Of a stretch of DNA of 39,408 bases, positions 6,377 to 9,339 are shown one piece after another. Position 1 is the first letter of the stretch, and each line of letters begins with the position of its first letter. The position numbers were made by a program, and so were the translations under genes. A model generated the notes under the pieces. That model was given only the letters and a program-made list of their open reading frames with translations, was not told the origin of the DNA and made no database searches. The stretch covers positions 1 through 39,408 of the IMG/VR virus record IMGVR_UViG_2917849834_000006. The stretch is one strand, 5' to 3'. The stretch comes from a virus (taxonomy: Duplodnaviria; Heunggongvirae; Uroviricota; Caudoviricetes).

Positions 6377-6407
6377 CAGAACACCTTCAATTTTTAACCA
6401 CAGAACG

Positions 6408-6971
6408 ATGAGGCTAACCGTGGGTAAGCATCACTGGAAAGTAGAAAAACAGCCTGAGTGGTACGTGAAAGCTGTCAGAAAAACTATCGCGGCATTGCCG
6501 GGGGGTTACGCTGAAGCTGCTGACTGGCTGGATGTAACAGAGAACGCATTATTTAACCGCCTTCGTGCCGATGGCGATCAGATTTTCCCGCTGGGATGGG
6601 CAATGATTTTACAGCGCGCGGCTGGCACTCACTACATTGCGGATGCTGTCGCACAGTCTGCTGGTGGGGTGTTTGTATCGCTTCCTGAAATTGAGGAAGT
6701 AGAGAACGCCGATATAAACCAGCGCCTGCTGGAAGTCATCGAACAGATCGGGAGTTACTCAAAGCAGATTCGTTCGGCAATCGAAGATGGGGTAGTGGAG
6801 CCACACGAGCAGACAGCAATTAATGATGAGTTGTATCTGTCAATTTCGAAGCTCCAGGAGCATGCAGCACTGGTCTACAAAATCTTTTGCGCTCCAGAAA
6901 AGAGTGACGCCCGCGAGTGTGCAGCTCCGGGCGTCGTGGCGTTTTGTGTCTGTGGAGAAACTAACGCATGA
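6408..6971 (+). CDS. CII-like regulatory protein (CP76/YdaT-like), tentative
   Basis: 187-aa ORF directly after cro; family assignment is from position and general resemblance only. Confidence 0.4.
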   Translation: MRLTVGKHHWKVEKQPEWYVKAVRKTIAALPGGYAEAADWLDVTENALFNRLRADGDQIFPLGWAMILQRAAGTHYIADAVAQSAGGVFVSLPEIEEVENADINQRLLEVIEQIGSYSKQIRSAIEDGVVEPHEQTAINDELYLSISKLQEHAALVYKIFCAPEKSDARECAAPGVVAFCVCGETNA

Positions 6972-7804
6972 ACAGTTTAACGGCAAATAATCGTTTGTCG
7001 CAACAGCTGGTGGTCAGTGTCGCTGAACACCTGTTGTTACGGCATGAATGCAGATTACCAAATCACCTGGCTGTAAGTAACCACAGAGAACTTTACCTGA
7101 CTGTGGGGGGCGAGTTGTGCAGGAACTTAACCGCTGGTTTCGTGACGGAAGAGGGCTTTATGTCCATGTTATTCGTTGGGAGCCAGAAACACAGCGCGTT
7201 ATCTATCTTCGCAAAGACTACCCGCATGAGTGCTTTAGTCCTTTGTGGAAATTCAGGCGTGATTTTGTTGAGTGTGAAGGACCACCAGCACATTGATTCT
7301 GCCATTCTGGGACGTTACACTGTTCAGGCACCTTATAAAGCGGGTGCCGGGATTGGCGTCCTGGAATTGCATACGGCGACAATTGGCGCGTTAGCGTCTT
7401 TTTTGTTGCTACAACTCAGCTATACCCAAATTATGGTGGGCTGGGTGGGGGCACCGAAAGGTGCGCCGGTTTCCGTATGCGCCGGTTACGCCAACCCTGC
7501 TCAGTTCACCACCAGCGAAATTGGCGTTTCCGGTGGTGGAAGTTATCCATTGCATACGGAGGCTGCCATCATGGCTACTGTCCCAGCCCTCTCTCGTCTG
7601 AATGATGACGACTTACATAAACTCAGTTATGTAACAACTGCACTACGTGCTCTGCGCAAGGTAACTCTTTCGGATCCGCAGGCGCATCAGGTTCTGGTAG
7701 AAACCCTTCTTAACTTGCAGGCTGAACGTATTCGTCTGGCGGATAAGGCTAATTTTCATATTCACCGTCTCCTTAATATCAGCGGAGGGCATCGTCATGC
7801 TTAA
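6968..7804 (+). CDS. Hypothetical protein (early right operon)
   Basis: 278-aa ORF with overlapping stop/start coupling; an alternative-frame protein-like ORF at about 7078-7260 leaves the reading frame in this segment uncertain. Confidence 0.4.
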   Translation: MNSLTANNRLSQQLVVSVAEHLLLRHECRLPNHLAVSNHRELYLTVGGELCRNLTAGFVTEEGFMSMLFVGSQKHSALSIFAKTTRMSALVLCGNSGVILLSVKDHQHIDSAILGRYTVQAPYKAGAGIGVLELHTATIGALASFLLLQLSYTQIMVGWVGAPKGAPVSVCAGYANPAQFTTSEIGVSGGGSYPLHTEAAIMATVPALSRLNDDDLHKLSYVTTALRALRKVTLSDPQAHQVLVETLLNLQAERIRLADKANFHIHRLLNISGGHRHA

Positions 7805-8033
7805 TCCGTTGATTCTCAATATTTGCCGTTTGCTTCAGCGTAAAAAAACATCAATTCCTACAGTTGGGCAGTGGTACACCACGCCTGCAGGGCATGTTCT
7901 ACGTGTTAGCCTGGTTGACCGTGAATGTCAGAAGGTGATTTGTGAACCGCTGGGCCGTAATTACCGCGTCAGTATGCCGCTTATAGCCTTTCGCTCCGGA
8001 AAAAACATGAAGCATCTCGGAGGTGCAGCATGA
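7797..8033 (+). CDS. Hypothetical protein
   Basis: 78-aa ORF, ATGCTTAA overlap with the upstream gene. Confidence 0.4.
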   Translation: MLNPLILNICRLLQRKKTSIPTVGQWYTTPAGHVLRVSLVDRECQKVICEPLGRNYRVSMPLIAFRSGKNMKHLGGAA

Positions 8034-8848
8034 GTATGGAGCTGATGGTTAAAGCGATGAAAATTCGAGTGGGTAATCCATTGCGAAAACTGGTTCTGAT
8101 CAAGCTGGCTGATAATGCCAGCGATCAGGGTGAGTGCTGGCCCAGCTACCAGCATATTGCTGACCAGTGCGAGATTAGCAAACGTTCTGTGATGAATCAT
8201 ATTGCGGCCCTTTGTGAGTCCGGGCTGGTAAAAAAAGTCACCCGGAAAGGTGAAAAAGGTAACTCAAGTAATATCTATCTCCTTCATCTGGATGGTGCAG
8301 GAGATTCACTAGGGGGTAGTGCAAATAATTCACTATCTGGTGCAGCAAATTCACCAGGTAGTGCAGGAGTTGCACCAGGGGGTAGTGCAGGAGATTCACC
8401 CAGAACCAGTCACTCTTTTGAACCAGTCAAAGAATCAGTCAATGAACCAATAGCTTTTGGTGCATCTGCTGATGAGTCTGTGCGAGTTCGTTCAAACCGA
8501 CCGGAATACTCTCCGGAGTTTGAGCAGGCATGGCTGGCATATCCCAAACGTGCTGGTGGCAATTCAAAATCTGCAGCCTTCAAAGCCTGGAAAGCCCGTT
8601 TGAATGAGGGGGTAAACCCCGAAACCATGCTGGAAGGTGTGAAACGCTACGCGGGCTGGGTATCTGCGATGGGTAACAGTGGCACACAATTTGTGAAACA
8701 GGCTGTCACGTTCTTTGGTCCGGATCGTCATTTCGAAGAATCCTGGGAAGTTCCTGCGGTATCTGCAGCCAGACGCGAGGACCCGTACTTCAAAGCCAGT
8801 TACGACAACGTGGACTACAGCCAGATCCCGGCAGGATTCAGGGGGTGA
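8030..8848 (+). CDS. Replication initiation protein (phage replisome organiser N-terminal HTH domain, O-like)
   Basis: N-terminal KLVLIKLADNASDQGECWPSYQHIADQCEISKRSVMNHIAALCESGLV winged-helix domain; internal G/S/A-rich linker encoded by iteron-like DNA repeats. Confidence 0.65.
   Translation: MSMELMVKAMKIRVGNPLRKLVLIKLADNASDQGECWPSYQHIADQCEISKRSVMNHIAALCESGLVKKVTRKGEKGNSSNIYLLHLDGAGDSLGGSANNSLSGAANSPGSAGVAPGGSAGDSPRTSHSFEPVKESVNEPIAFGASADESVRVRSNRPEYSPEFEQAWLAYPKRAGGNSKSAAFKAWKARLNEGVNPETMLEGVKRYAGWVSAMGNSGTQFVKQAVTFFGPDRHFEESWEVPAVSAARREDPYFKASYDNVDYSQIPAGFRG
8290..8400 (+). repeat. Iteron-like direct repeats inside the replication gene (candidate origin)
   Basis: Five or more copies of (G/A)GTGCA(G/C) with repeated GGTGCAGGAGATTCAC and GGGGGTAGTGCA units. 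Confidence 0.5.
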
Positions 8849-9339
8849 TCATGAGTCTTTTGAATGAAGTTCAGAAATTCATTGAAGCCCATCCGGGGTG
8901 TACTTCCGGAGACATTGCGGATGCTTTTACAGGTTACTCACGGCAGCGCGTTCTGCAGTCAGCAAGCAAGTTACGTCAGAGTGGGCGTGTGGCTCACCGT
9001 TGTGAAGGGGATACACGCAGACATTTCCCGCGCCTGACTGAGAGAGCGCAGGAGCCGGAACCACAACCAGTTCGTGAAACCAGACCTGTGCGCAATTTCT
9101 ATGTCGGCACTAACGATCCACGGGTGATTTTGTGCCTGACCCGCCAGGCTGAAGAACTGGAGTCAAGGGGCTTATACCGTCGTGCTGCAACCGTGTGGAT
9201 GGCGGCATTCCGTGAAAGCCACTCCCAGCCAGAACGAAACAATTTTCTGGCGCGTCGTGAGCGGTGCTTACGGAAAAGCAGCAAGCGCGCTGCATCGGGT
9301 GAAGAGTGGTATCTGTCAGGGAATTACGTGGGGGCTTAA
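8845..9339 (+). CDS. PerC-like transcriptional activator family protein, tentative
   Basis: 164 aa; C-terminal LYRRAATVWMAAFRES… resembles PerC-family proteins common in enterobacterial prophages. Confidence 0.35.
   Translation: MIMSLLNEVQKFIEAHPGCTSGDIADAFTGYSRQRVLQSASKLRQSGRVAHRCEGDTRRHFPRLTERAQEPEPQPVRETRPVRNFYVGTNDPRVILCLTRQAEELESRGLYRRAATVWMAAFRESHSQPERNNFLARRERCLRKSSKRAASGEEWYLSGNYVGA

Follow-up and report, generated by a model that had tools for sequence, protein, structure and literature searches.

A conserved DUF4222 gene within the composite 'orf37/Ash' open reading frame of an SfV/e14-like prophage and its probable overlap with a ymfM-like frame

Phages are known to derive two products from one stretch of DNA in different frames, as in lambda Rz/Rz1 and the phiX174 overlaps, with one frame of such a same-strand pair bearing most of the constraint. 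In the e14 prophage of Escherichia coli K-12, a 112-residue protein is annotated as 'cell division inhibitor YmfM' (locus L003, 3323-3661). In the isrK-orf45-anrP region of Gifsy-1, isrK has its own promoter, and orf45, which is translated in coupling with the antirepressor gene anrP, conserves its nucleotides while its amino acids vary (PMC4825925); orf45 thus offers a precedent for a translated open reading frame (ORF) with an unconstrained peptide. The sole characterised DUF4222 protein that we found is RgdR (ECs1581) of prophage Sp7/CP-933C in enterohaemorrhagic E. coli (EHEC) O157:H7, an activator of LEE1 and type III secretion and a repressor of motility that shows weak, non-specific DNA binding (PMC3378721, PMC10877973). 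Here these systems are compared with a locus in a 39,408-nucleotide stretch of DNA from a virus of the Caudoviricetes (IMG/VR record IMGVR_UViG_2917849834_000006; the whole stretch is called the window hereafter), where a 278-codon ORF at 6968-7804 on the + strand, without a stop throughout and labelled orf37 in phage SfV or 'ash family protein', encloses a 59-residue DUF4222 gene (7117-7296, + strand) in another frame.

Around 6400-8900 the window covers the immunity and replication region of a lambdoid prophage of the SfV/e14 type. Sequence identity is 97-99% with phages Ayreon, 2H10 and SfV, and 99.8% with many chromosomes of extraintestinal pathogenic E. coli. A sequence-only reading had noticed a protein-like second frame inside the long ORF and had proposed either an overlapping small gene or a frameshift that made the long ORF partly artefactual. 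We find that the DUF4222 gene is a real, independently initiated and already catalogued gene of the early operon, and that the long ORF is a composite of a leader, an out-of-frame overlap, two RNA genes and one short true gene, not one selected protein. The best explanation of the whole, and one that we hold with good though not full confidence, is a two-gene locus within this composite: the DUF4222 gene at 7117-7296 and, on the same strand and out of frame with it, a ymfM-like ORF that would begin at 6968.

The peptide quoted for the second frame is the exact translation of the + strand ORF at 7117-7296. The span originally assigned to it, 7078-7260, pointed to the right ORF, with limits that began about 39 nt before the start codon and ended 36 nt before the stop. 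Open from 7081, this frame has its first start codon in the GTG at 7117 and its stop in the TGA at 7294-7296. The G-rich ribosome-binding tract that had been suspected is present as a Shine-Dalgarno-like GGGGGG, read from the sequence at 7105-7110 (+ strand), 6 nt upstream of the GTG; at the homologous position every lineage has its own Shine-Dalgarno and an ATG, GTG or TTG. The 59-residue product matches Pfam DUF4222 (PF13973; profile positions 4-51 of 53 at E 9.5e-14, with 51.1 bits where the cut-off is 27) and, over its full length, PHROG 1343 (E 1.1e-36), both far beyond chance. It carries the residues D10, G13, V28, R32, Y35 and P42, invariant in an alignment of 21 sequences that includes distant phage homologues, and the C-terminus of the window type (…FVECEGPPAH) differs from that of its relatives. 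A search of NCBIfam with the DUF4222 ORF, the long ORF, the shorter 'Ash' ORF described below and a 77-residue distal ORF gave zero matching models.

The public record already contains the small gene. The identical 59-residue sequence is listed in RefSeq as 'MULTISPECIES: DUF4222 domain-containing protein' on at least 999 contigs, and in an E. coli chromosome 99.8% identical to the window the Prokaryotic Genome Annotation Pipeline (PGAP) calls it at precisely 7117-7296 (WP_001341559.1). The identical 278-residue sequence occurs in RefSeq once, as an 'ash family protein' of Escherichia sp. E4702, and what PGAP retains of the long ORF is an 'ash family protein' corresponding to 7259-7804. By tblastn, a DUF4222 homologue is found in 115 phage records from Escherichia, Shigella, Salmonella, Klebsiella, Citrobacter, Serratia, Yersinia and Morganella; in several of these records it is masked by a longer ORF, drawn in a different frame or even on the opposite strand. 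Among 15 phage loci inspected, DUF4222 lies downstream of cro and cII-like genes in 14, the replication initiator gene follows it directly, often overlapping, in 11, and an Ash/c4 module stands between the two in three. A confident AlphaFold2 model, built with 19 homologues (predicted local distance difference test score 85.7), depicts a small beta-barrel with one helix, and the protein is accordingly predicted to be an SH3/KOW/Tudor-like barrel plus helix; a fold search of the model against the PDB and a viral library returned just generic barrels of this type, none with E < 0.001.

Substitution patterns separate the two frames. The long ORF is read one base out of register with DUF4222 (the DUF4222 frame +1), and the proportions of non-synonymous (pN) and synonymous (pS) differences were compared pairwise over the first 53 DUF4222 codons of ten diverged homologues. 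In the DUF4222 frame pN/pS is about 0.03-0.3 and in the long frame it is > 1; against phage ST64B the DUF4222 frame has pS 0.41 and pN 0.016, and between K-12 and a Klebsiella phage pS 0.78 and pN 0.048. In both the long frame and the third frame pN exceeds pS, as it does in unselected frames overlying a constrained gene. Among the 82 window-type loci that make up our near-identical set, the 11 polymorphisms in 7117-7258 are all synonymous for DUF4222 and all non-synonymous for the long frame. Over 7117-7296, amino-acid constraint is on the DUF4222 frame and none is on the long frame, which bears out the proposal of an overlapping small gene. An antisense ORF at 7093-7305, listed as a gene in one phage record, was rejected, 10 of the 11 polymorphisms being non-synonymous in it; the antisense frame that shares wobble positions is broken by a stop at 7218-7220.

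These data bear directly on the possibility that the 278-residue ORF is the true gene and the other frame protein-like by chance. Phage SfV and several other phage records do annotate the long ORF only. Yet when both frames are taken through homology searches, it is the alternative frame that meets DUF4222 and PHROG 1343 with the E values given above, and the long ORF finds an Ash match at residues 117-209 alone; the substitution pattern favours the DUF4222 frame, phages of Serratia, Yersinia and Morganella carry homologues as stand-alone genes, and RNA genes lie inside the long ORF. Far from the long-frame product alone being conserved, the DUF4222 frame clearly is conserved and selected, and we can give the idea of a single long gene practically no credence. 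Much the same can be said of the idea that genes were split or merged, whether by an indel introduced in sequencing or assembly or by a frameshift that recently made a pseudogene. Nothing suggests it beyond the presence of two frames; no indel is seen relative to related loci, and the same two-frame layout recurs in the 82 window-type loci, in the 79 loci (53 haplotypes) of the K-12-type set and in 32 loci of enterobacterial prophages from other genera. The frameshift offered as an alternative in the sequence-only reading is contradicted by this recurrence, and a lesion of this kind has next to no chance of being the explanation.

What distinguishes the long frame over the overlap is its freedom from stops. 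A ymfM-like leader precedes DUF4222 in a set of 43 genes from ten or more genera, from which 29 representatives with < 93% nucleotide identity were taken, and in 43 of 43 genes the +1 frame has 0 stops over DUF4222 codons 1-52. When synonymous codons are resampled with the phage's own codon usage, about 2 such stops are expected per gene, and the probability of finding none is 0.03-0.08 per lineage; the +2 frame of the same genes contains 1-7 stops. The avoidance can be followed codon by codon. Leu, Val and Ile codons at which a final A or G would create a +1 stop (risky codons) end in T or C in 132 of 132 cases among the 29 representatives, against an A or G ending at 55 of 142 non-risky Leu, Val and Ile sites in the same genes (Fisher 6e-19, uncorrected for relatedness). 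Risky sites vary between T and C only, codon 18 being GTT in 13 representatives and GTC in 15, and the non-risky codon 31 is mostly CTG. In DUF4222 genes that have no such leader (phiNP, SaltyDalty, BZS1, Morganella and others), by contrast, 18 of 47 risky codons do produce +1 stops. The ymfM frame then ends within DUF4222 codons 53-55 in 24 of the 29 representatives, through ATA, TTA or CTA; in 21 of those 24 the stop lies exactly 9 nt before the next ATG, with a Shine-Dalgarno at the stop, and in annotated examples this ATG is that of the replication gene. The window, ST64B, a Stx-type locus and two further loci (L099 and L133) are without a ymfM stop at these codons. In the last of these, a Salmonella Oranienburg prophage (L133, 1696-2323), a reverse-strand pair of helix-turn-helix (HTH) and Gp49 genes resembling HigB/HigA is inserted between DUF4222 and the Ash/Rha gene, and the +1 frame is open for 628 codons across it; this openness probably arises from lying antisense to coding sequence.

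The leader itself, the first 50 codons of the long ORF (6968-7116, + strand), is preceded by a GGAGA Shine-Dalgarno at 6954-6958. A hidden Markov model built from the most frequent leader family matches it (E 1.8e-7; hhalign probability 99.2%), and on this sequence similarity we identify it as a diverged homologue of the N-terminal domain of e14 YmfM (PHROG 20047; YmfM is in PHROG 1170); neither Pfam nor NCBIfam has a family that matches residues 1-97 of the long ORF. The GGAGA and the ATGAACAGTTTA start are kept across lineages, even where the upstream gene is a different one. The leaders of the 43 loci fall into four related families. In three of them pN/pS in the ymfM frame is 0.35-0.46 against about 1 in the other frames, third-position changes being in excess. 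Leader indels are multiples of three. In the K-12-type set the first 60 codons have 18 synonymous polymorphisms and 1 non-synonymous (53 haplotypes), and the ymfM ORF is 112 residues long in 78 of the 79 loci. Most relatives, e14 among them, show a selected ymfM N-terminal domain of about 57 residues and then an unconstrained tail of about 52. The fourth family is that of the window; it comprises the window, ST64B, one Citrobacter locus and two Salmonella loci, homologous in frame.

One might suppose instead that 6972-7296 contains no real gene other than DUF4222, and that ahead of the Ash part the long frame is untranslated, being open by ancestry and chance. Such a view would be at ease with overlap polymorphisms that are 11 of 11 non-synonymous in the long frame, with a window-type leader whose pN/pS of 0.65 is indistinguishable from that of the control frames, and with PGAP, which calls neither the 5' part in the window nor ymfM in the non-reference genomes listed. 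It is difficult to reconcile with risky codons that are safe in every case at the very sites that vary between T and C, when leaderless homologues show no avoidance, or with a Shine-Dalgarno and ATG kept despite a differing upstream gene, K-12-type leaders with a single amino-acid change against 18 silent ones, and leader indels in threes. We regard it as unlikely, though it is the most serious of the rivals. A programmed -1 ribosomal frameshift fusing the YmfM N-terminal domain to the DUF4222 domain is far less probable. The selected segments do lie in frames 0 and -1 of one mRNA, the upstream one ending where the downstream one begins; but no slippery heptamer is seen by eye near the junction, DUF4222 has its own Shine-Dalgarno and start codon in every lineage, and the DUF4222 frame upstream of that start freely gains and loses stops. 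A fusion would also leave 52 further open codons in frame 0 unexplained, and DUF4222 stands alone elsewhere.

In the two-gene reading that we favour, the ymfM-like ORF would be coupled through an ATGA to the stop of the upstream regulator gene ymfL and would be read in the +1 frame across the entire DUF4222 gene. A +1 frame that is free of stops and without amino-acid constraint suggests selection for translation through the overlap. The open frame would be needed for the passage of ribosomes, in order either, most simply, to couple translation to the downstream gene or to protect against polarity; the +1-frame peptide over the overlap would probably be unimportant, and the tail would just have to remain open. 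The locus resembles lambda Rz/Rz1 and phiX174 in drawing two products from one stretch of DNA in different frames, and differs from them in that the second frame of the window has freedom from stops only and no amino-acid constraint, which points to a need for translation and not for a particular peptide. In the window, a module of the Gifsy-1 IsrK / P1 c4 type would have been placed after DUF4222, where the usual ymfM stop is missing, and the frame would run on through an IsrK-like RNA and a C4 RNA with its orf45-like ORF into a short real ORF; the 278-codon 'orf37/Ash' ORF would be the outcome. The 5' frame of the long ORF is probably translated.

Several observations weigh against this reading. 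In the window-type leader, polymorphisms among the 82 near-identical loci are 10 synonymous to 15 non-synonymous, and its pN/pS of 0.65 compares with 0.72 and 0.83 in the other frames; the ymfM-like part may be decaying in this lineage. The stop-avoidance statistics treat lineages as independent though they are related. No conserved or significant structure hiding the DUF4222 ribosome-binding site, of a kind that ymfM translation might open, appeared when six lineages were folded (z -1.1 to +1.7). Ribosome entry from upstream seems at odds with C4-mediated translational control at 7518-7562, and the terminator of the IsrK-like RNA (7385-7408) falls within the long ORF. Finally, the literature search found no ribosome profiling or proteomics for either frame. 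The wider proposition, that ymfM/DUF4222 is a conserved dual-coding locus of enterobacterial lambdoid prophages whose ymfM frame is held open to relay ribosomes to the replication gene (in the window by way of the c4/IsrK module and the next gene, orf38), the peptide itself being immaterial, is one that we put forward tentatively, as having somewhat less than an even chance of being correct.

Beyond the DUF4222 stop, the long ORF runs over RNA genes. An IsrK-like small RNA at 7328-7404 (+ strand; Rfam RF01394, 61.2 bits against a gathering threshold of 50, E 7.5e-13) is ended by a terminator hairpin and T tract at 7385-7408 (+ strand, found by terminator scan), and a C4-type antisense RNA of the P1/P7 c4 and P4 CI clan occupies 7429-7516 (+ strand; Rfam RF01695, 80.7 bits against 45, E 2e-16, full length). 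The C4 loop, ACGCCAACCC at 7488-7497 (+ strand), is complementary to two targets, of which the first, GGGATTGGCGTCC at 7349-7361 (+ strand), is within the IsrK-like RNA. The second, at 7518-7531 (+ strand), is inside an orf45-like upstream ORF (7433-7570, + strand) that overlies the C4 RNA, is the point at which PHROG 4908 proteins start, and continues without a change of frame into a distal small ORF 77 residues long (7571-7804, + strand), whose Shine-Dalgarno is GGAGG at 7558-7562. Ten relatives were aligned, and from one specificity type to another the loop and both targets co-vary, all three together; the loop/target pairs, read by eye, are TTGGCGT with ACGCCAA, GTGGAAA with TTTCCAC and TCGCAG with CTGCGA. 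At least five or six specificity types of the module exist, and its flanks (7259-7314 and the downstream ORF) recombine independently. A candidate sigma-70 promoter for the IsrK-like RNA (TTGATT, a 17-nt spacer and TACACT; 7293-7321, + strand) overlaps the DUF4222 stop and ends 6 nt before 7328; it is proposed from its sequence, the start of the Rfam match and the Gifsy-1 precedent, and it scored under the promoter-scan threshold.

Over this module the long frame again stays open. The orf45-like ORF has 46-47 codons and is stop-free in the 8 specificity types counted, and over 7298-7570 the long frame is stop-free, with a length that is a multiple of three, in ten of ten types. No coding signature was detected in any frame over 7315-7570, where pN/pS of the long frame (1.05, 0.82 and 0.85) is the same as that of the other frames and differences are spread evenly over codon positions. 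In 7571-7804, on the other hand, synonymous polymorphisms outnumber non-synonymous ones by 11 to 5 when read in the long frame, the ratios being 5:11 and 1:15 in the other two; no other part of the 'Ash' ORF has the substitution pattern of a protein-coding sequence. The distal ORF belongs to no Pfam or NCBIfam family and has no Rha or Ant domain. The Pfam Ash domain (PF10554, Phage_ASH; 62.6 bits against 26), the only Pfam hit of the long ORF, lies at its residues 117-209, past the DUF4222 stop, and may be largely a translation of the RNA control module. The start of the 'Ash' ORF is annotated variously at 6968 (SfV), GTG 7259 (PGAP), GTG 7274 (PHROG 3960) and ATG 7433 (PHROG 4908); just 7433 and 7571 are backed by the Gifsy-1 precedent and the substitution pattern. 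The suspicion that the long ORF is artefactual therefore holds for it as a 278-residue protein, with no constraint over the overlap and an Ash domain lying on RNA genes, and fails for its 5' part, which is ymfM-like and kept free of stops.

The likeness to the isrK-orf45-anrP module of Gifsy-1 is close. In the window as in Gifsy-1, an IsrK-like RNA with its terminator is followed by a C4-type RNA; there are two targets for the C4 loop; an ORF of about 46 codons overlies the C4 RNA, its amino acids varying while its nucleotides are kept; and a strong ribosome-binding site for the next ORF comes right after the second target. There are also differences. The orf45-like ORF of the window is fused in frame to the downstream ORF, whereas the corresponding genes of Gifsy-1 overlap by AUGA; the downstream product of the window has 77 residues, while the relatives ST64B and Stx phages carry Rha or Ant; and in the window the upstream ymfM frame enters the module. 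The C4 module also resembles the c4-icd-ant arrangement of phage P1/P7 immI, as reported by Citron and Schuster (1990) and by Biere et al. (1992).

The genes on either side are closely packed. Upstream, ymfL (6420-6971, + strand; PGAP coordinates) encodes a CII-like regulator (Phage_CP76; Pfam CP76 E 1.4e-14, NCBIfam YmfL equivalog E 8e-50), and its stop shares an ATGA at 6968-6971 with the ATG of the long ORF. Downstream, the ATG of orf38 (7797-8033, + strand; 78 residues, PHROG 1153) overlaps the stop of the long ORF (TAA 7802-7804; joint span 7797-7804), and the orf38 stop shares an ATGA at 8030-8033 with the start of the replication initiator gene (8030-8848, + strand; O / DnaD-like, 'primosomal protein'). 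These stop-start overlaps link ymfL, the long ORF, orf38 and the replication gene in a chain of about 1.1 kb that is consistent with serial translational coupling. The gene orf38 occupies the slot that DUF4222 has in other phages, overlapping the start of the replication gene; a distant paralogy with DUF4222 is possible but unproven, the similarity being faint, with a PHROG E of 0.008 and an hhalign probability of 4.8%. A hairpin GACGCCCG-N14-CGGGCGTC (6906-6935, + strand), which lies some 35 nt before the long ORF begins and at the 3' end of the cII-like gene or just beyond it, is present in nearly all loci with a ymfM leader (about 35 loci, many genera). Its arms show compensatory changes, several of them independent (CCCG/CGGG, CCAG/CTGG, CCGG/CCGG and CACCCG/CGGGTG), and the region folds within 6895-6975 at -31.4 kcal/mol (z -2.8); it might serve in processing, as a nut-like element or as an attenuator. 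Enterobacterial-type ymfM/DUF4222 loci also turn up in assemblies labelled Vagococcus sp., a Geobacteraceae metagenome-assembled genome and Dietzia massiliensis (a 310-nt contig), likely through contamination or mis-binning.

As to what the DUF4222 protein does, our best guess, by analogy with RgdR and from its fixed position before replication genes, is that it may be a small early regulatory or adaptor protein; that its role is tied to the replication or transcription machinery is possible, though we would put this at little more than one chance in three. The DUF4222 domain of RgdR (Pfam E 2e-23) resembles the family of the window protein with an hhalign probability of 97.4% and 35% identity over 51 residues, and both proteins are small and prophage-encoded. 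The rgdR gene (L217, 3720-4019, EHEC Sakai Sp7) has an ATGA overlap with a downstream P4-type primase gene, in the manner of the lambdoid layout of a small gene before a replication gene. However, RgdR is 99 residues long, with N- and C-terminal extensions, and is encoded in a P4-like element and not in a lambdoid immunity and replication region. An RGD motif at residues 20-22 of RgdR is required for the activity of the orthologues tested (PMC3378721). The window protein lacks it: the motif aligns with residues 4-6 of the window protein, which are LNR, or falls just before them, RgdR residue 22 standing opposite window residue 6 in the hhalign alignment. The phenotypes of RgdR cannot be transferred to the window protein.

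The e14 locus of K-12 shares the arrangement of the window. Its ymfM has an ATGA coupling to ymfL and an MNSL start, and a DUF4222 ORF is contained in the +1 overlap (L003, 3502-3681; 59 residues, TTG start, AAGGAG Shine-Dalgarno, Pfam E 8.6e-19). In K-12, unlike the window, ymfM stops in DUF4222 codon 53, 9 nt before the replication gene, whereas the frame of the window runs into the RNA module; and the K-12 leader is strongly selected, whereas the window-type leader is not clearly so. The curated K-12 reference record annotates ymfM, and the DUF4222 gene is absent from it. PGAP does the opposite, annotating DUF4222 and not ymfM, on UTI89, on further K-12 assemblies and in all the non-reference genomes that were listed from some 2,000 matching records.

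This matters for the identity of SfiC, the SOS division inhibitor of e14. In the work that assigned the filamentation phenotype of SfiC to ymfM, 'the open reading frame' was cloned into pBAD24 and the gene was deleted, and no tag, frame-specific mutation or DUF4222 control is reported (bioRxiv 10.1101/2020.11.19.390815). If the pBAD24 insert ended at the ymfM stop, 53 of the 59 DUF4222 codons, and with them the whole Pfam domain, would have been inside it. The fragments recovered in two earlier screens hold both ORFs complete, and later ymfM work used whole-gene deletions. Our literature search found no paper tying DUF4222 to ymfM, or ymfM to overlapping genes or ribosome profiling. A corollary of the dual-coding proposition is that the identity of SfiC would not be settled: the assignment to YmfM used a clone that also carries the DUF4222 domain, and the DUF4222 protein could be the inhibitor, or inhibition could need both products. 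YmfM remains the likelier of the two, since pBAD24 drives the ymfM frame strongly; that DUF4222 causes the filamentation in e14-type elements, or contributes to it, we consider a possibility of about one in three.

The small gene is thus already catalogued in RefSeq, and what is unreported is the maintained dual coding with ymfM and the ambiguity over SfiC. In many phage records (SfV orf37, ST64B sb41, Stx phages), and under the 'Ash family' label, the long protein is largely illusory, and its annotation conceals a conserved small gene and two regulatory RNA genes. The gaps in bacterial annotation are complementary, the K-12 reference having ymfM only and PGAP DUF4222 only, and the evidence is that both frames are maintained. 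As the clones and deletions behind the published SfiC evidence that we read all contain or remove DUF4222, a question about e14 that has been held closed for 35 years can be reopened.

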